A DNA stretch of 10,906 nucleotides from a virus (lineage: Duplodnaviria; Heunggongvirae; Uroviricota; Caudoviricetes): the IMG/VR virus record IMGVR_UViG_2681813263_000008. One strand, written 5' to 3'. Every line of letters starts with the position of its first letter. Within the stretch, counting starts at the first letter, position 1. The notes beneath the pieces were generated by a model that was not told where the DNA came from, did no database searches, and saw only the letters and a list, made by a program, of their open reading frames with translations. Of the stretch, positions 1-10,906 are shown piece after piece. The position numbers and the translations under genes are program-made.

Positions 1-1
1 G

Positions 2-109
2 GCGAATTACCGTCTTATATCACTGGCGCTGACATCTCCGGATGACGGGGGCAGCTGTTATCTCTGGCTCAACCGTGGGCAACCACCCGCAGTTAACCGG
101 CGACGATAA
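2..109 (+). CDS. FII: 3' fragment of head-tail joining protein (lambda FII-like); start lies upstream of window
   Basis: Frame-2 reading from position 2 is open to TAA at 107-109 and ends ...SPDDGGSCYLWLNRGQPPAVNRRR, matching the lambda gpFII C-terminus as I recall it. It sits immediately upstream of Z, as in lambda. Confidence 0.55.
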   Translation, partial: ANYRLISLALTSPDDGGSCYLWLNRGQPPAVNRRR

Positions 110-123
110 ACGCAGGGTGAATT

Positions 124-699
124 ATGGCGATAAAAGGGCTTGATCAGGCGATTGACAATCTGAGCCGGGTTCGTAAAAACGCCATTCCGGCTGCTTCTGC
201 AATGACCATTAACCGCGTGGCCACAACGGCGATTAATCAGTCTTCGTCACAGGTTGCCCGGGAAACCAGGGTGAGACGGAAACTGGTAAAGGAACGGTCC
301 AGACTGAAACGGGCGACGGTCAGAAATCCGAATGCCAGAATTATCGTTAACCGCGGTGATCTCCCTGTGATTAAGCTGGGGATCAGAATGCTGGGGCGTC
401 GTCCGAACAGCATACTCAAAGCCGGTCAGCATCGTTATCAGCGGGCATTTATCCAGCGATTAAATAATGGGCGCTGGCATGTTATGCAACGTCTTCCCCA
501 GGCCAGATATGAGGAGGGCAATGACGACAAGGGAAGGAAAAAGCGTAATCGCCTTCCCATTCAGGTGGTGAAAATCCCGATGGCGGCCCCACTGAAACAG
601 GCATTTGATGAGAATGTTGACCGTATCCGGCGTGAACGCCTGCCTAAAGAACTGGCATACGCGCTGAAACAACAACTGAGGATTGCGATAAAACGATGA
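124..699 (+). CDS. Z: tail completion protein (lambda gpZ-like)
   Basis: 191-aa ORF beginning MAIKGLDQAIDNLSR... and ending ...[22 protein letters not shown], very similar to lambda gpZ (192 aa) in sequence and length. Its stop overlaps the U start as ATGA at 696-699. Confidence 0.9.
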   Translation: MAIKGLDQAIDNLSRVRKNAIPAASAMTINRVATTAINQSSSQVARETRVRRKLVKERSRLKRATVRNPNARIIVNRGDLPVIKLGIRMLGRRPNSILKAGQHRYQRAFIQRLNNGRWHVMQRLPQARYEEGNDDKGRKKRNRLPIQVVKIPMAAPLKQAFDENVDRIRRERLPKELAYALKQQLRIAIKR

Positions 700-1091
700 A
701 ACACACTGACATTCGTGCCGCAGTGCTGGATGCACTCGAGCAGCATGAACACGGGGCGACGCTGTTTGATGGTCGCCCCGTTGTTTTTGACGAAGAGGAT
801 TTTCCTGCGATCGCGGTTTATCTGACGGATGCAGAGTATACCGGTGAAGAGCTGGATGCAGATACCTGGCGGGCCACACTGCATATTGAGGTGTTTTTAC
901 CGGCACAGGTACCTGATTCGGAGCTCGATCAGTGGATGGAAAGCCGGATTTATCCGGCGATGACTGCGATCCCTGCACTGGCAGGACTGATTACCACGAT
1001 GGTTACGCAGGGCTATGAGTATCGTCGTGATGACGATATGGCGTTATGGAGCTCTGCGGATCTGACTTATTCCATTACATACGAGATGTGA
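696..1091 (+). CDS. U: tail terminator protein (lambda gpU-like)
   Basis: 131-aa [31 protein letters not shown]...[13 protein letters not shown], near-identical in length and sequence to lambda gpU (131 aa). The start is coupled to the Z stop; GAGGA lies upstream of the following V. Confidence 0.92.
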
Positions 1092-1098
1092 GGACGAT

Positions 1099-1851
1099 AT
1101 GGCAACACCAAATCCCCTGGAGCCGGTAAAAGGTGCCGGTACCACTCTGTGGGTTTACAACGGCAAGGCTGATGCTTATGCAAACCCGTTGTCAGACGAT
1201 GACTGGCAGCGACTGGCTAAGGTGAAGGATCTGACGCCGGGCGAGATGACGGCTGAATCCTATGATGATAACTACCTGGATGATGAAGACGCGGACTGGA
1301 GCGCGACCGGGCAGGGGCAGAAATCTGCAGGTGATACCAGTTTTACGCTGGCCTGGAAACCGGGAGAGGAAGGCCAGAAAGGGCTTATAGGCTGGTTTGA
1401 AAGCGGCGATGTCCGGGCCTATAAAATCCGTTTTCCGAATGGCACGGTGGATGTGTTTCGTGGCTGGGTCAGCAGTATCGGTAAGGCCGTGACGGCGAAA
1501 GAAGTGATCACCCGCACGGTGAAAGTCACTAACGTGGGTAAACCTTCTGTAGCGGAAGAACGCAGCAAAATTACGCCGGTCAGTGCGATTAAGGTGACGC
1601 CGACATCCGGTACGGTGGCAAAAGGGAAAACAACCACCCTGACGGTTTCTTTTGAGCCGGAAAGTGCAACCGACAAGACGTTCAGAGCGGTTTCCGCCGA
1701 TCCGTCGAAAGCCACCATTAGTGTGAAAGATATGACAATTACGGTAAACGGCGTGGCGACAGGTAAGGTGCAGATCCCTGTGGTGAGCGGAAATGGTCAG
1801 TTCGCCGCAGTGGCTGAAGTCACCGTTACTGAAGCGGGCGCTGCAGGGTAA
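1099..1851 (+). CDS. V: major tail tube protein with C-terminal Ig-like (Big_2-type) domain (lambda gpV-like)
   Basis: 250-aa ORF containing [33 protein letters not shown] and [39 protein letters not shown], all hallmark gpV stretches. The C-terminal ~90 aa (TLTVSFEPE...[12 protein letters not shown]) resembles the gpV Ig-like domain. A GAGG RBS precedes the ATG. Confidence 0.93.
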
Positions 1852-1864
1852 ACGGAGGTAATAC

Positions 1865-2296
1865 ATGTTTCTGAAAACAGAACAATTTGAATATAACGGT
1901 GTGTCTGTCACGCTTTCCGAATTGTCTGCGCTGCAGCGTATCGAGCATCTTGCCCTCCTGAAACGGCGTGCAGAACAGGCAGAATCCAGCGGCAACCTGC
2001 AGGTAAGCGTGGAAGATCTCGTCAGAACCGGCGCGTTTCTGGTGGCGATGTCCCTGTGGCATAACCATCCACAGAAAACGCAGTCACCGTCAATGAATGA
2101 GGCCGTGATGAAGATAGAGCAGGAAGTGCTCACCACCTGGCCTGCCGATGCCATTGCCCGGGCGGAAGACGTGGTGTTGTGCCTGTCCGGGATGATCGAA
2201 GCTGTTCGTCCGGATACTGATATTACTGAAGTGGCGAAAAATAACACGCTGACTGATGATGATTTTTCTGCGGGAAAGTCTTCGACGGCGAGCTGA
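1865..2296 (+). CDS. G: tail assembly chaperone (lambda gpG-like)
   Basis: 143-aa ORF MFLKTEQFEYNGVSVTLSELSALQRIEHLALLKRRAEQAES...AMSLWHNHPQKTQSPSMNEAV..., matching lambda gpG. GGAGG RBS sits 8 nt upstream. The slippery heptamer lies near its 3' end. Confidence 0.9.
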   Translation: MFLKTEQFEYNGVSVTLSELSALQRIEHLALLKRRAEQAESSGNLQVSVEDLVRTGAFLVAMSLWHNHPQKTQSPSMNEAVMKIEQEVLTTWPADAIARAEDVVLCLSGMIEAVRPDTDITEVAKNNTLTDDDFSAGKSSTAS

Positions 2297-2736
2297 ACTT
2301 TGCCCTCAGACTGGCGCGTGAGATGGGGAGACCCGACTGGCGCGCCATGCTTGCCGGGATGACATCCACCGAATATGCCGACTGGCACCGTTTTTACCGC
2401 ACGCATTATTTTCAGGATACCCAGCTGGATATGCATTTTTCCGGGCTGACGTACGCTGTACTCAGCCTGTTTTTTTGCGATCCGGATATGCATCCCTCTG
2501 ATTTCAGTCTGCTTGTCCCCCGGCATGAGGAAGAGCAGGTGGAGAGGCCGGATGAGGACAAAATGCTGATGCAGAAAGCGGCAGGACTTGCCGGAGGCGT
2601 CCGGTTCGGTGGGGACGGAGGGCGCGATATTTTATCGTCTGCGGATGTGGCGGATGTCATGGTGGATGATGCCGCATTAATGATGGCTTCAGCGGGGATT
2701 CCGGGAGGTGTGAGATATGTCCCAGCCGGTTGGTGA
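1865..2736 (+). CDS. T: tail assembly chaperone G-T fusion made by programmed -1 ribosomal frameshift at 2272-2278 (lambda gpGT-like)
   Basis: G is read in frame 2 to the heptamer G GGA AAG (2272-2278). The -1 frame (frame 1) is closed by three consecutive TGA codons (2254-2262) and opens only at 2263, then runs to TGA at 2734-2736, encoding ...VFDGELNFALRLAREMGRPDWRAMLAGMTSTEYADWHRFYRT.... Same architecture as lambda G/GT; predicted fusion ~290 aa. Confidence 0.8.
2272..2278 (+). other. slippery heptamer G GGA AAG (programmed -1 frameshift signal for G-T)
   Basis: Exact X XXY YYZ heptanucleotide in the G reading frame, the same heptamer as the lambda G/T site. It sits just where the -1 frame becomes open. 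Confidence 0.8.
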
Positions 2737-5378
2737 TCTTGTTATTGACCTGAGTCTGGATGCTGTCCGTTTCGATGAGCAGATGAGCCGGGTAAGGCGT
2801 CATTTTTCAGGTCTGGATACCGACGCCAGAAAAACCGCCAGTGCTGTTGAACAGGGCCTGAGCCGCCAGGCGCTGGCTGCACAAAAAGCCGGGATTTCCG
2901 TCGGGCAGTATAAAGCGGCCATGCGAACCCTGCCCGCACAGTTTACGGATATCGCCACGCAGCTTGCCGGTGGTCAGAATCCCTGGCTGATCCTGCTGCA
3001 ACAGGGCGGTCAGGTGAAGGACTCCTTCGGCGGGATGATCCCCATGTTCAGGGGGCTTGCCGATGCGATCACCCTGCCGATGGTCGGGGTCACCTCGCTG
3101 GCGGTGGCGACAGGTGCACTGGTGTACGCCTGGTACCAGGGAGATTCCACGCTTTCAGCGTTTAATAAAACCCTGGTTCTTTCCGGTAATCAGTCCGGAC
3201 TGACTGCCGATCGTATGCTGACTCTCTCAAGAGCCGGGCAGGCAGCAGGGCTGACGTTTAACCAGGCGAGAGAGTCACTGGCAGCCCTGGTGAATGCCGG
3301 TGTGCGTGGTGGTGAACAGTTTGATGCCATCAACCAGAGTGTCGCGCGTTTTGCGTCTGCATCCGGTGTGGAGGTGGATAAAGTCGCTGAAGCCTTCGGG
3401 AAGCTGACCACTGACCCGACGTCGGGACTGATGGCGATGGCGCGCCAGTTCCGTAACGTGACGGCAGAGCAGATTGCGTATGTTGCACAGCTGCAGCGTT
3501 CCGGAGACGAGGCCGGGGCATTGCAGGCGGCGAACGATATCGCCACGAAAGGCTTTGATGAGCAGACCCGTCGCCTGAAAGAAAACATGGGAACACTGGA
3601 GACCTGGGCGGATAAAACAGGGAAGGCATTCAAATCGATGTGGGATGCCATTCTGGATATCGGTCGTCCGGAATCCTCAGCGGATATGCTCGCCAGTGCG
3701 CAGAAGGCATTTGATGAGGCGGATAAAAAATGGCAGTGGTACCAGAGTCGGAGCCAGCGCCGCGGTAAAACCTCCTCTTTCCGGGCCAACCTTCAGGGCG
3801 CATGGGATGACCGGGAAAATGCCCGTCTGGGTCTGGCAGCGGCAACGCTGCAGTCGGATATGGAAAAAGCCGGTGAACTGGCGGCAAGGGACAGGGCTGA
3901 GCGTGAGTCGTCACAGCTGAAGTATACCGGAGAGGCGCAGAAGGCGTATGAGCGCCTGCTGACGCCACTGGAGAAATATACCGCCCGNNNNNNNNNNNNN
4001 NNNNNNNNNNNNNNNNNNNNNNNNNNNNNNNNNNNNNNNNNNNNNNNNNNNNNNNNNNNNNNNNNNNNNNNNNNNNNNNNNNNNNNNNNNNNNNNNNNNN
4101 NNNNNNNNNNNNNNNNNNNNNNNNNNNNNNNNNNNNNNNNNNNNNNNNNNNNNNNNNNNNNNNNNNNNNNNNNNNNNNNNNNNNNNNNNNNNNNNNNNNN
4201 NNNNNNNNNNNNNNNNNNNNNNNNNNNNNNNNNNNNNNNNNNNNNNNNNNNNNNNNNNNNNNNNNNNNNNNNNNNNNNNNNNNNNTGCGAATGAAAAAAT
4301 CAGCCAGCAGCGCCGTGATTTATGGAAAGCGGAAAATCAGTATGTGGTCCTGAAAGAGGCCGCCACGAAACGGCAGTTATCTGAGCAGGAAAAATCCCTG
4401 CTGGCCCATGAGAAAGAAACGCTGGAGTACAAACGCCAGCTGGCTGAGCTGGGCGACAAGATTGAACACCAGAAACGGCTGAATGAGCTGGCACAGCAGG
4501 CGGCGCGGTTTGAACAGCAGCAGAGCGCGAAGCAGGCGGCAATCAGCGCAAAAGCCCGCGGACTCACCGACCGTCAGGCGCAGCGGGAGTCGGAAGAGCA
4601 GCGCCTTCGTGAGGTGTACGGTGATAATCCGGCTGCGCTGGCGAAGGCCACATCTGCACTGAAGAACACCTGGTCTGCGGAGGAGCAGCTTCGTGGAAGC
4701 TGGATGGCCGGGATGAAGTCCGGCTGGGGCGAGTGGGCGGAAAGTGCGACGGACAGTTTTTCGCAGGTTAAAAACGCGGCCACGCAGACCTTTGACGGTA
4801 TTGCACAGAATATGGCAGCGATGCTGATCGGCAGCGAACAGAACTGGCGTGGTTTCACCCGTTCTGTGCTGTCCATGCTGACAGAGATTTTTCTGAAGCA
4901 GGCGATGGTGGGGATAGTCGGGAGTATCGGCAGCGCCATTGGCGGTGCTTTCGGTGGTGGTGCGTCTGCCTCCACGGGGACGGCCATTCAGGCTGCGGCG
5001 GCGAACTTCCATTTCGCGACCGGGGGATTTACGGGGACGGGGGGTAAATATGAACCTGCGGGGATTGTTCATCGCGGGGAGTTTGTCTTCACGAAGGAGG
5101 CGACCAGCCGGATTGGTGTCGGCAATCTGTACCGCCTGATGCGGGGCTATGCGGAAGGTGGTTATGTCGGCGGTGCCGGAAGTCCGGCGCAGATGCGGCG
5201 GGCGGAAGGCATTAATTTTAATCAGAACAATCACGTGGTGATTCAGAACGACGGCCCCAACGGGCGGGCAGGGCCGCAGCTGATGAAAGCGGTGTATGAG
5301 ATGGCCCGCAAGGGGGCACAGGATGAACTCCGGCTGCAGTTGCGTGATGGCGGTATGTTATCAGGGAGCGGTGGATGA
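2717..5378 (+). CDS. H: tail tape measure protein (lambda gpH-like); interrupted by a 298-nt N-run with a +1 frame offset across it
   Basis: N-terminal part (2717-3987, frame 2) MSQPVGDLVIDLSLDAVRFDEQMSRVRRHFSG...QKAYERLLTPLEKYTA and C-terminal part (4287-5378, frame 0) ANEKISQQRRDLWKAENQYVVLKEAATKRQLS...AIQAAAANFHFATGGFTGTGGKYEPAGIVHRGEFVFTKEATSRIGVGNLYRLMRGYA... both match lambda gpH. GGGAGGTG RBS precedes the start; the start overlaps the T stop by 20 nt. The frame is not continuous across 3988-4285. Confidence 0.85.
3988..4285. other. run of 298 N (unresolved or masked sequence) inside H
   Basis: Directly visible as n characters; flanked on both sides by gpH-like coding sequence in different frames. 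Confidence 0.99.
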
Positions 5379-5722
5379 AAACCTTTCGCTGGAAAGTGAA
5401 GCCGGATATGGAGGTGAACTCGCAGCCATCGGNNNNNNNNNNNNNNNNNNNGCGTGAAGTGCGTTTTGGTGACGGGTACTCACAGCGTATGGCGGCAGGG
5501 CTGAATGCTGACCTGAAAACATACAGGGTGACGCTTTCCGTGACCCGGGAGGAGGCCCGGCATCTGGAAGCGTTCCTGGCAGAGCACGGTGGCTGGAAGG
5601 CATTTTTGTGGAAGCCACCCTATGCATACCGGCAGATAAAGGTGACCTGTGCCGGGTGGTCTGCGCGGGTCGGGATGTTGCGCGTTGAGTTCAGCGCGGA
5701 GTTTAAGCAGGTGGTGAACTGA
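5375..5722 (+). CDS. M: tail tip protein (lambda gpM-like); contains a 19-nt N-run
   Basis: ORF MKTFRWKVKPDMEVNSQPS[N-run]REVRFGDGYSQRMAAGLNADLKTYRVTLSV...IKVTCAGWSARVGMLRVEFSAEFKQVVN matches lambda gpM (109 aa). Frame is continuous across the N-run. ATG overlaps the H stop (ATGA at 5375-5378). Confidence 0.88.
   Translation: MKTFRWKVKPDMEVNSQPSXXXXXXXREVRFGDGYSQRMAAGLNADLKTYRVTLSVTREEARHLEAFLAEHGGWKAFLWKPPYAYRQIKVTCAGWSARVGMLRVEFSAEFKQVVN
5433..5451. other. run of 19 N inside M
   Basis: Directly visible; the M reading frame is continuous across it. Confidence 0.99.
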
Positions 5723-6429
5723 TGCAGGATATTCGCGAAGAAAGTCTGAACGAGTCGGTTAAGTCAGAGCAGTCACCGCGGGTGGTACTCTGGGAAATCG
5801 ACCTGACGGTACAGGGTGGTGAGCGGTATTTTTTCTGTAATGAGCTGAATGAAAAAGGGGAGCCGGTCACCTGGCAGGGGCGTAAGTATGAGGCATACCC
5901 GATTGACGGCAGCGGCTTTGAGATGAACGGCCGGGGCAGCAGTGCCAGACCGTCGCTGACGGTGTCCAATCTGTTCGGTCTGGTCACCGGGATGGCGGAA
6001 GACCTGCAGAGTCTGGTGGGGGCCACGGTGGTCCGCCGCCGGGTGTATGCCCGTTTTCTGGATGCGGTGAATTTCGTTGCGGGCAATCCGGAGGCGNNNN
6101 NNNNNNNNNNNNNNNNNNNNNNNNNNNNNNNNNNNNNNNNNNNNNNNNNNNNNNNNNNNNNNNNNNNNNNNNNNNNNNNNNNNNNNNNNNNNNNNNNNNN
6201 NNNNNNNNNNNNNNNNNNNNNNNNNNNNNNNNNNNNNNNNNNNNNNNNNNNNNNNNNNNNNNNNNNNNNNNNNNNNNNNNNNNNNNNNNNNNNNNNNNNN
6301 NNNNNNNNNNNNNNNNNNNNNNNNNNNNNNNNNNNNNNNNNNNNNNNNNNNNNNNNNNNNNNNNNNNNNNNNNNNNNNNNNNNNNNNNNNNNNNNNNNNN
6401 NATGTCGGCAATTTTGGCGGTTTCCTTTC
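5722..6429 (+). CDS. L: tail tip protein (lambda gpL-like); 3' end and stop hidden in N-runs
   Basis: N-terminal part (5722-6096, frame 1) MQDIREESLNE...VVLWEIDLT..GGERYFFCNE.NEKGEPVTWQGR.Y..YPI.GSGFE.NG...RPSLTVSNLFGLVTGMAEDLQSLVGATVVRRRVYARFLDAVNFV matches lambda gpL. An isolated island 6402-6429 encodes (N)VGNFGGFLS, the gpL C-terminal motif, but in frame 2. Start overlaps the M stop (TGATG). Confidence 0.8.
6097..6401. other. run of 305 N inside L
   Basis: Directly visible; separates the gpL N-terminal part from the 28-nt gpL C-terminal island. Confidence 0.99.
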
Positions 6430-6701
6430 NNNNNNNNNNNNNNNNNNNNNNNNNNNNNNNNNNNNNNNNNNNNNNNNNNNNNNNNNNNNNNNNNNNNNNN
6501 NNNNNNNNNNNNNNNNNNNNNNNNNNNNNNNNNNNNNNNNNNNNNNNNNNNNNNNNNNNNNNNNNNNNNNNNNNNNNNNNNNNNNNNNNNNNNNNNNNNN
6601 NNNNNNNNNNNNNNNNNNNNNNNNNNNNNNNNNNNNNNNNNNNNNNNNNNNNNNNNNNNNNNNNNNNNNNNNNNNNNNNNNNNNNNNNNNNNNNNNNNNN
6701 N
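6430..6701. other. run of 272 N covering L 3' end, L-K junction and K 5' end
   Basis: Directly visible. Confidence 0.99.
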
Positions 6702-7244
6702 CCTGGCTGAGCGAGGCTGACCGGCGGNNNNNNNNNNNNNNNNNNNNNNNNNNNNNNNNNNNNNNNNNNNNNNNNNNNNNNNNNNNNNNNNNNNNNNNNN
6801 NNNNNNNNNNNNNNNNNNNNNNNNNNNNNNNNNNNNNNNNNNNNNNNNNNNNNNNNNNNNNNNNNNNNNCTGTTCCGGGATGCTTATCATCTGGCGGGGA
6901 CTGAAATGCCGGATTTTCATCGCGAGGATGACTGGTGGCGCAACGGTCAGAACCTTTACCTGGACAATATGGCGGTCACCGGCTTTTACCGGGTGCCCCT
7001 GTCCTCTGCACAGGCGGGCGATATTCTGCTGTGCTGCTTTGGTGCTTCGGTACCGAACCATGCCGCCATTTACTGCGGCAACGGTGAGCTGCTTCACCAT
7101 CTGCCTGAACAACTGAGTAAACGGGAGAGGTATTCCGAAAAATGGCAACGACGAACGCATTCAGTCTGGCGTCACCGCCACTGGCACGCATCTGCCTTCA
7201 CGGGGATTTACAACGATTTGGCCGCCGCCTCAGCCTGTATGTGA
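6702..7244 (+). CDS. K: tail tip assembly protein (lambda gpK-like); 5' end hidden in N-runs, visible in two pieces
   Basis: Island 6702-6727 encodes WLSEADRR (frame 2). The segment 6870-7244 (frame 0) encodes LFRDAYHLAGTEMPDFHREDDWWRNGQNLYLDNMAVTGFYRVPL...GDILLCCFGASVPNHAAIYCGNGELLHHLPEQLSKRERYSEKWQRRTHSVWRHRHW..., consistent with the gpK C-terminal region. Stop TGA at 7242-7244 lies 103 nt inside I, the same K/I overlap length as in lambda. Confidence 0.75.
6728..6869. other. run of 142 N inside K
   Basis: Directly visible; the K-like islands on either side are in different frames. Confidence 0.99.
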
Positions 7245-7646: not shown

Positions 7647-8261
7647 NNNNNNNNNNNNNNNNNNNNNNNNNNNNNNNNNNNNNNNNNNNNNNNNNNNNNN
7701 NNNNNNNNNNNNNNNNNNNNNNNNNNNNNNNNNNNNNNNNNNNNNNNNNNNNNNNNNNNNNNNNNNNNNNNNNNNNNNNNNNNNNNNNNNNNNNNNNNNN
7801 NNNNNNNNNNNNNNNNNNNNNNNNNNNNNNNNNNNNNNNNNNNNNNNNNNNNNNNNNNNNNNNNNNNNNNNNNNNNNNNNNNNNNNNNNNNNNNNNNNNN
7901 NNNNNNNNNNNNNNNNNNNNNNNNNNNNNNNNNNNNNNNNNNNNNNNNNNNNNNNNNNNNNNNNNNNNNNNNNNNNNNNNNNNNNNNNNNNNNNNNNNNN
8001 NNNNNNNNNNNNNNNNNNNNNNNNNNNNNNNNNNNNNNNNNNNNNNNNNNNNNNNNNNNNNNNNNNNNNNNNNNNNNNNNNNNNNNNNNNNNNNNNNNNN
8101 NNNNNNNNNNNNNNNNNNNNNNNNNNNNNNNNNNNNNNNNNNNNNNNNNNNNNNNNNNNNNNNNNNNNNNNNNNNNNNNNNNNNNNNNNNNNNNNNNNNN
8201 NNNNNNNNNNNNNNNNNNNNNNNNNNNNNNNNNNNNNNNNNNNNNNNNNNNNNNNNNNNNN
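7647..8261. other. run of 615 N covering I 3' end and the I-J junction
   Basis: Directly visible; only 16 nt of readable sequence (with the J RBS) separate it from the J start codon. Confidence 0.99.
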
Positions 8262-8277: not shown

Positions 8278-10906
8278 ATGGGAAAAGGTGGCGGTAAGGC
8301 ACACACGCCTCGTGAGGCGAAGGATAATCTCAAATCCACGCAGATGATGAGCGTGATTGATGCGATTGGTGAGGGACCGATAGAAGGTCCGGTGAAGGGA
8401 CTGCAGAGTATCCTGGTGAACAAAACCCCGCTGACGGACACGGACGGTAATCCCGTGATACACGGTGTGACGGCGGTCTGACGCGCCGGGGAGCAGGAGC
8501 AGACACCACCGGAAGGCTTTGAGTCCTCCGGTGCTGAAACCGGACTGGGCGTGGAAGTGACGAAGGCAAAACCGGTGACGCGCACCATTACGTCCGCGAA
8601 CATTGACCGCCTGCGGGTTACCTTCGGGGTGCAGTCACTGGTGCAGACCACGTCAAAGGGTGACCGAAACCCGACATCCGTCCGCCTGCTGATTCAGTTA
8701 CAGCGTAACGGTAACTGGGTGACAGAAAAGGATGTCACCATTAACGGCAAGACCACCTCGCAGTTTCTGGCGTCGGTGATTCTGGATAATCTGCCTCCCC
8801 GTCCTTTTAACATCCGGATGGTCCGGGAGACAGCGGACAGCACCACGGACCAGCTGCAGAATAAGACGCTGTGGTCGTCATACACCGAAATCATCGATGT
8901 GAAACAGTGCTACCCGAACACGGCCATTGTGGGGCTGCAGGTGGATGCGGAGCAGTTCGGCGGCCAGCAGATGACGGTGAACTACCATATCCGCGGTCGC
9001 ATCATCCAGGTGCCGTCAAACTATGACCCGGAAAAACGCACGTACAGTGGTATCTGGGACGGCAGCCTGAAACCGGCATACAGCAACAATCCGGCCTGGT
9101 GTCTGTGGGACATGCTGACTCACCCGCGCTACGGCATGGGAAAACGTCTGGGGGCGGCGGATGTGGACAAGTGGGCGCTGTATGCCATCGGGCAGTACTG
9201 CGACCAGACGGTCCCGGATGGTTTCGGGGAGACCGAGCCGCGGATGACCTTCAATGCGTACCTGGCACAACAGCGTAAGGCATGGGACGTGCTCAGTGAT
9301 TTCTGCTCGGCGATGCGCTGTATGCCGGTATGGAACGGCCAGACGCTGACGTTTGTTCAGGACCGCCCGTCGGATGTGGTGTGGCCGTACACCAACAGCG
9401 ATGTGGTGGTGGATGATAACGGCGTGGGTTTCCGCTACAGCTTCAGTGCCCTGAAGGACCGGCACACGGCGGTGGAGGTGAATTATACCGACCCGCAGAA
9501 CGGCTGGCAGACCTCCACGGAACTGGTGGAAGACCCGGAAGCCATACTGCGCTACGGACGCAACCTGCTGAAGATGGACGCGTTCGGCTGTACCAGCCGC
9601 GGTCAGGCCCACCGTGCCGGACTGTGGGTGATAAAGACCGAACTGCTGGAAACGCAGACGGTGGATTTCACGCTCGGGTCTCAGGGGCTGCGGCACACAC
9701 CCGGTGACATCATTGAAATCTGTGATAACGACTATGCCGGGACCCTGACCGGCGGACGTGTCCTGTCCATTGATGCTGCCACCCGCACTCTGACGCTGGA
9801 CCGTGAAGTGACACTTCCGGAGACCGGTGCCGCCACGGTGAACCTGATTAACGGCAGCGGTAAGCCGGTGAGTGTGGACATCACCGAACACCCCGCGCCG
9901 GACCGGATACAGGTCAGTACCCTGCCTGATGGTGTGGAGACATACGGGGTGTGGGGACTCTCCCTGCCGTCACTGCGCCGTCGCCTGTTCCGCTGTGTCT
10001 CCGTCCGGGAAAACACGGACGGCACCTTTGCCATCACGGCGGTGCAGCACGTACTGGAAAAAGAAGCCATCGTGGATAACGGTGCCCGCTTTGAGCCGCA
10101 GTCAGGTTCCCTGAACAGCGTCATCCCACCGGCAGTGCAGCACCTGACGGCCAGTATCTGGCGCAGGCGAAATGGGACACGCCGCGGGTGGTGAAGGGTG
10201 TGCGCTTCAGTCTGCGCCTGACCAGTGGTAAGGGAACGGATGCCAGACTGGTGACCACCGCCATCACCGCAGACACGGAGCACCGTTTCAGCGGCCTGCC
10301 GCTCGGGGAATACACCCTGACGGTGCGGGCGATAAACAGCTATGGCCAGCAGGGTGAACCTGCCACCACCACCTTCCGGATTGCCGCACCGGCAGCACCG
10401 TCGCGGATTGAGCTGACGTCGGGCTATTTTCAGATAACCGCAACGCCGCATCTTGCCGTTTATGACCCGACGGTACAGTTTGAGTTCTGGTTCTCGGAAA
10501 AGCGGATTGCGGATATCAGGCAGGTTGAAACCACAGCACGCTATCTTGGCACGGCGCTGTACTGGATAGCCGCCAGTATCAATATCAAACCGGGCCATGA
10601 TTATTATTTTTACGTTCGCAGTGTGAACACCGTTGGCAAATCGGCATTCGTGGAGGCTGTCGGTCGGGCGAGCGATGATGCGGAAGGTTACCTGGATTTT
10701 TTCAAAGGAGAGATAGGGAAAACACATCTGGCTCAGGAGCTGTGGACGCAGATTGATAACGGTCAGCTTGCGCCTGACCTGGCTGAAATCAGGACGTCCA
10801 TTACGGATGTCAGCAATGAAATCACGCAGACCGTCAATAAGAAACTGGAAGACCAGAGTGCGGCAATTCAGCAGATACAGAAGGTTCAGGTTGATACAAA
10901 TAATAA
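8278..10906 (+). pseudogene. J: host specificity / central tail fibre protein (lambda gpJ-like), 3'-truncated by window end; as written it is interrupted by an in-frame TGA (8479-8481) and a frameshift near 10152
   Basis: Three collinear J-like segments. (1) 8278-8478, frame 1: MGKGGGKAHTPREAKDNLKSTQMMSVIDAIGEGPIEGPVKGL...IHGVTAV, then TGA. (2) 8482-10191, same frame: RAGEQEQTPPEGFESSG...TRTITSANIDRLRVTFGVQ...KQCYPNTAIVGLQVD...PAWCLWDMLTHPRYGMGKRLGAADVDKWALY...CTSRGQAHRAGLW...PPAVQHLTA. (3) 10152-10906, frame 0, open to window end: [24 protein letters not shown]...[35 protein letters not shown]...[44 protein letters not shown].... AGGGGAAGG RBS precedes the ATG. The type could equally be CDS if the two lesions are sequencing errors. 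Confidence 0.8.

Follow-up and report, generated by a model that had tools for sequence, protein, structure and literature searches.

The window, a stretch of 10,906 nt, very probably represents the FII'-Z-U-V-G-T-H-M-L-K-I-J tail module of a defective lambda-like prophage of Shigella sonnei, in which J has been disrupted, in the course of ordinary pseudogene decay, by a real and inherited deletion of 22 nt between two short direct repeats, most likely through replication slippage. The J pseudogene carries two lesions of independent origin, this deletion and a nonsense mutation near the start of the gene, both of them fixed in the lineage. The list of open reading frames and their translations allow the window to be read as a lambda-type tail module on the + strand, and the tail module of a prophage of E. 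coli 55989 is 98.7% identical to it. J follows Z-U-V-G-T-H-M-L-K-I and precedes lom/stf, as seen in loci L007 to L016 and in annotated E. coli prophages. The features of the window are collected in Table 1.

Table 1. Features of the window, with positions numbered from its first nucleotide
Feature	Position	Strand	Basis or remark
IS21-like insertion sequence, terminal 35 nt	1-35	-	istA/istB lie further left, outside the window
FII-like head-tail joining gene, 3' remnant of ~75 nt	36-109	+	cut off by IS21
Z	124-699	+	ORF list
U	696-1091	+	ORF list
V	1099-1851	+	ORF list
G	1865-2296	+	ORF list
T	2323-2736	+	ORF list
H	start 2717	+	M, L and K come after H
I	start 7142	+	ORF list
J	ATG 8278	+	runs past the window end
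J fragment 1, ATG and 67 codons, ending at nonsense TGA 8479-8481	8278-8481	+	codon-wise alignment to intact J
J fragment 2, original frame: FNIII-A, Phage-tail_3 hub domains, start of Ig_J	8482-10143	+	domains and alignment
Second close repeat pair, GGTGTGG (7 nt), 17 nt apart	9931-9954	+	intact in the window
Deletion junction, single CTGACGG	10144-10150	+	22 nt absent relative to intact J
Out-of-frame end of fragment 2 (foreign residues from 10153) and premature TGA 10192-10194	10151-10194	+	
J fragment 3, -1 frame: remaining Ig_J and second Ig domain	10152-10906	+	continues past the window end

Two lesions in J

At the site of the deletion, J has the sequence GCAGCAC-CTGACGG-TGGAGGTGAGCGCAG-CTGACGG-CCAGTAT in E. 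coli E2348/69 and 55989, where the gene is intact, and GCAGCAC CTGACGG CCAGTAT in the window, with one copy of the repeat kept. Nucleotide alignment identifies the missing 22 nt as CTGACGGTGGAGGTGAGCGCAG, nt 1867-1888 of J, equivalent to seven codons and one nucleotide; the same 22 nt are intact in the J gene of 55989, while alignment of the junction with the E2348/69 gene gives 201 identical bases out of 201, interrupted by the single gap. An earlier note on this DNA, which compared the frames with lambda J, had put the loss at about seven codons and one nucleotide, and this is exact. Its suggestion that intact J genes of related lambdoid prophages be aligned at the nucleotide level does pin the indel, as a deletion of 22 nt, and the collinearity with J that it took from lambda holds in alignments to these closer intact genes. 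The frameshift that it placed near 10152 is likewise genuine, the junction repeat lying 2-8 nt further left; insertion of a single base, which it envisaged as the correction that might restore one continuous frame, does not describe the event, in which 22 nt were lost.

The deletion, at residues 623-630 of 1157, takes VEVSAAD out of the first Ig-like domain (PF24421, residues 609-712), close to where that domain begins, and shifts the frame by -1, so that translation stops 14 codons later. When the frame beginning at ATG 8278 is read past the TGA at 8479-8481, it continues through the junction into foreign residues and ends at the TGA at 10192-10194, while a second frame, open from 10095 (directly after a TGA at 10092-10094) to the end of the window, carries the rest of J in the -1 frame. 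Translation thus bears out the two frames as they were first described, the one running into non-homologous residues and its stop at 10192-10194, the other open from 10095 and coding for J from 10152.

The note counted this as the second disruption of the gene; the first is real as well, but is not a frameshift: codon-wise comparison shows that codon 68 has changed from TGG to TGA (window 8479-8481), an in-frame nonsense mutation. In sister contigs fragment 1 is called as an ORF of 67 aa, gene callers begin fragment 2 at GTG 8551, and fragment 3 is an ORF of 509-513 aa that reaches the normal J stop. The codon-68 TGA and the 22-nt deletion are the only breaks in the full-length pseudo-J of locus L007, and given the two together no full-length J protein is possible; the uninterrupted J frame of about 1150 codons is lost at codon 68 and at nt 1867-1888.

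In other respects the gene remains recognisably gpJ. Compared with the intact proteins of 55989 (WP_000514729.1) and E2348/69 (WP_000514675.1), the window J is collinear over all 2629 nt at 96-97% nucleotide identity (95.9% to E2348/69 J; 71 mismatches in 2629 nt to 55989 J), and it shares with them the order of Pfam domains and the neighbours, Z to I upstream and lom/stf downstream. In intact 55989 J the domains are FNIII-A_GpJ (residues 86-207), Phage-tail_3 (331-491), Ig_J (609-712), Ig_J_second (714-816), Phage_Tail_Tip (870-998) and Ig_GpJ_C (1027-1157), and the J fragments of the sister contigs contain the full set in the same order. Unlike the intact genes, the window allele has the TGG to TGA change and the frameshifting deletion. 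The divergence from the intact J alleles is older than the inactivation.

Footprint and origin of the deletion

The two copies of CTGACGG, whose starts are 22 nt apart in the ancestral J, would have mispaired, with loss of the interval and retention of one copy, and replication slippage or a related microhomology-mediated event would be the most likely cause. The repeat pair is present in both E2348/69 and 55989, and a single copy remains at 10144-10150. Slipped-strand deletions between short direct repeats elsewhere leave the same trace as in J, where the interval has gone and one 7-nt copy is kept, and no difference from them was observed; the mechanism is read from this footprint, for which slippage appears the most likely explanation. 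Such repeats are not unusually frequent in the gene. Direct repeats of 7 nt or more that lie no further than 40 nt apart number only six in intact J, and shuffled sequences give 6.3 +/- 2.4, which is to say no excess, but two of those six are the exact sites of deletions: that of the 22 nt, and that of 17 nt in L004, an IMG/VR contig which also carries the 22-nt deletion and has undergone this additional frameshifting loss at the position equivalent to window 9931-9947, between the GGTGTGG repeats. The 17-nt loss would be a second, independent event of the slippage type.

It is rather unlikely that the deletion arose by another route, such as repair of a break by microhomology-mediated end joining, or recombination with a divergent paralogue of J. 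A footprint with one copy retained would suit any microhomology-dependent route equally well, and S. sonnei contigs do contain a second J copy that is about 80% identical (L006 12035-14209). Both flanks, however, are the same as in the intact alleles as far as the repeats, the junction shows no mosaic tract, and in enterobacteria small deletions of this sort have their textbook source in slippage between short repeats that lie close together.

Inheritance of the deletion and fate of the J fragments

The deletion is found in many assemblies. A 31-mer spanning the junction occurs in five IMG/VR contigs with five different IMG genome ids, and the exact truncated ORF of 547 aa (GTG 8551 to TGA 10194) is present on 24 NCBI draft-assembly contigs, where its protein accessions bear the name "host specificity protein J [Shigella sonnei]". 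Ten of the 24 contigs were fetched, from the accession series CX.., UEAP, CABWDP, ABGQOM, DAKIRS and ABFYAB, and in all 15 of the other loci so obtained (five from IMG/VR and ten from NCBI) the 22-nt gap is identical. The carriers can be told apart by a few SNPs, and are therefore taken to be separate isolates. The nonsense codon travels with the deletion: the TGA at codon 68 is present in every aligned carrier that covers this codon, the same five IMG/VR contigs contain both the TGA and the junction, and the 67-aa ORF lies directly upstream of truncated J in 10 of 10 fetched NCBI contigs. A search of IMG/VR for an allele with just one of the two lesions found none.

In the matches listed from outside this group of sequences the 22 nt are retained. 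Of 5,426 complete E. coli genomes, 1,887 had gpJ genes that matched a 401-nt query over the site, as did 122 phage records, and for 60 of the 60 best-listed matches, among E. coli genomes and phage records, the matched span was 419-423 nt as against the 401 nt of the query, the 22 nt being present in all of them. Likewise, in each match listed from the 5,426 complete E. coli genomes, a 91-nt query across the junction aligned only in two pieces, which together spanned 113 nt. Since no carrier of the deletion was seen among the listed megablast matches in those genomes, the lesion looks specific to the S. sonnei lineage. The junction 31-mer also gave zero exact matches in the GTDB species-representative genomes, probably since an E. 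coli genome stands for Shigella there.

All of the carriers seen are draft short-read assemblies, and the question arises whether the true genome has the 22 nt and miscalling or misassembly removed them. The region does show signs of imperfect assembly: the lengths of the N runs in the window disagree with those of sister contigs by 288 nt in total, and SNPs between assemblies cluster at 10419-10868, where several of the window variants correspond to the E2348/69-type allele, a hint that J paralogues have been mixed. Against this, 15 further fetched loci, of several submitters and accession series, have the same junction; the segment 9984-10418 around it is invariant in the window and 13 aligned carriers; loss of 22 nt between 7-nt repeats is atypical of short-read error; and the closest N run ends at 8261, 1.9 kb upstream of the junction. 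An artefact is accordingly very improbable, and a junction common to independent assemblies is best accounted for as a real, vertically inherited allele of the S. sonnei lineage.

Even less probable is that a programmed -1 shift joins the two frames into one J protein, or that the fragments are expressed and used separately. The downstream frame does overlap the upstream ORF by 100 nt (10095-10194), and the predicted downstream ORF of 509-513 aa keeps intact Ig, tail-tip and receptor-binding domains. Programmed frameshifting was nevertheless rejected, because the 100-nt overlap contains no slippery heptamer of the form X_XXY_YYZ, because the two-frame layout was seen in this lineage alone while the listed J homologues are single-frame, and because the TGA at codon 68 already stops translation upstream. 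The interruption of FII by IS21 also tells against continued use of the fragments, as does the further frameshifting deletion in one sub-lineage, which is what would be expected without selection. The J site shares with the programmed -1 frameshift of lambda G/GT its place in a tail gene cluster and its two overlapping frames, but unlike G/GT it has no slippery site, is not conserved, and arose by deletion relative to intact homologues. The true G/T pair of the window, at 1865-2736, is unrelated to the J lesion.

It would be a long shot to propose that the C-terminal J fragment of about 510 aa, in which the Ig, tail-tip and receptor-binding domains are intact, still undergoes translation from an internal start and might be kept by S. 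sonnei for a host function, for example to block an outer-membrane receptor against superinfecting lambdoid phages, and that the intact Z-I tail genes might serve a tailocin-like use. Nothing supports retained function of the fragment. J as a decayed pseudogene is nothing new in kind, public databases already contain its fragments under the J name, and the biological weight of the finding is small: genome decay is well known in this species, and a further pseudogene is added to a prophage that is itself degraded. Its use is practical. Annotation should combine the three J ORFs, of 67, 547 and about 510 aa, and flag them as a single pseudogene, and the repeat-bounded 22-nt junction together with the TGA at codon 68 cleanly marks the lineage of this S. 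sonnei prophage remnant.

The surrounding prophage remnant

The left end of the window falls within an insertion sequence. Nucleotides 1-1773 of locus L007 are 100% identical to annotated E. coli IS21, and the first base of the window corresponds to L007 1739; homology to the prophages of E. coli relatives begins at window 35. This position corresponds to 6001 of L017, within the head-tail joining CDS of 55989 (5722-6075), 75 nt before its stop codon. Loci L012 and L015 start at exactly the first base of the window, which suggests a contig break at a repeated IS. The IS elements listed for S. sonnei 53G are of 12 types, IS21 among them, and across S. sonnei genomes 719 pseudogenes have been identified (PMC7373316).

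The insertion of IS21 in FII, and the nonsense mutation and frameshift in J, are common to every carrier that covers the respective sites, and mark the prophage as defective. The element resembles the defective lambdoid prophages of Shigella and E. coli subject to IS-driven degradation (Hawkey et al. 2020, PMC7373316), which likewise have an IS in a structural gene, pseudogenes created by nonsense and frameshift mutations, and lesions fixed across isolates; there is no notable difference from them, the tail genes of the present element other than FII and J being intact in sister contigs. Decay is thus limited, in that the lesions of the sister contigs are confined to FII and J, the ORFs for H, M, L, K and I being intact. 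For phage lambda, J is essential for tail assembly and adsorption. Because of this, the prophage would presumably be unable to make infective tails.

Two lesions in one essential gene had been taken in the earlier note to indicate either decay of a cryptic prophage or systematic problems of sequence quality. Decay is upheld by the presence of both J lesions in the 15 other loci, by the 547-aa ORF on 24 contigs and by IS21 in FII. Poor sequence quality fails as an explanation of the J deletion but does apply elsewhere in the window, in six N runs (3988-4285, 5433-5451, 6097-6401, 6430-6701, 6728-6869 and 7647-8261). These total 1,651 nt, against 1,363 nt at the same places in sister contigs (210, 1, 274, 255, 120 and 503 nt), and are scaffold gaps of the wrong length in a multi-copy prophage region. 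Frames shift across these runs, so that H is falsely split and L, K and I are falsely broken, while the J deletion site is untouched, and the runs should not be taken as gene disruptions. In particular, a split of H into 2717-4294 and 4344-5378 was considered and rejected: it is an artefact created by the 298-N run at 3988-4285, and in sister contigs H is intact, at 857 aa.

The SNPs between assemblies lie at 10419, 10534/5/8, 10832, 10848 and 10868, outside the frame overlap at 10095-10194. The cluster suggests mixing with paralogous copies of J, whether by gene conversion or in assembly, and from this and the scaffold gaps it follows that assembly of the multi-copy prophage region is imperfect. 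Some S. sonnei contigs are also arranged differently: in L006 the second J copy lies just downstream, L013 has a partial H-M-L' block (1-1770) before Z, and in L010 the same M-J segment follows a different Z-H block. Such contigs represent tandem prophage remnants, recombinants or chimeric assemblies.

Between I and J there is an AT-rich spacer of about 343 nt (L007 9385-9727), hidden in the window by the Ns at 7647-8261; it corresponds to L017 13613-13954, with no annotated gene in 55989, and in E2348/69 the spacer is 240 nt. To our knowledge lambda has no such gap. By eye, a GC-rich hairpin followed by a T-rich stretch at L007 9595-9631 is terminator-like, and an Rfam scan of the 343-nt spacer gave only sub-threshold chance matches. 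Downstream of the tail-fibre genes, L009 (17063-17245) and L016 (12172-12354) encode a 60-aa fragment of a resolvase/invertase that adjoins oppositely oriented tail-fibre assembly (Caudo_TAP) genes, an arrangement that looks like a decayed invertible tail-fibre switch.
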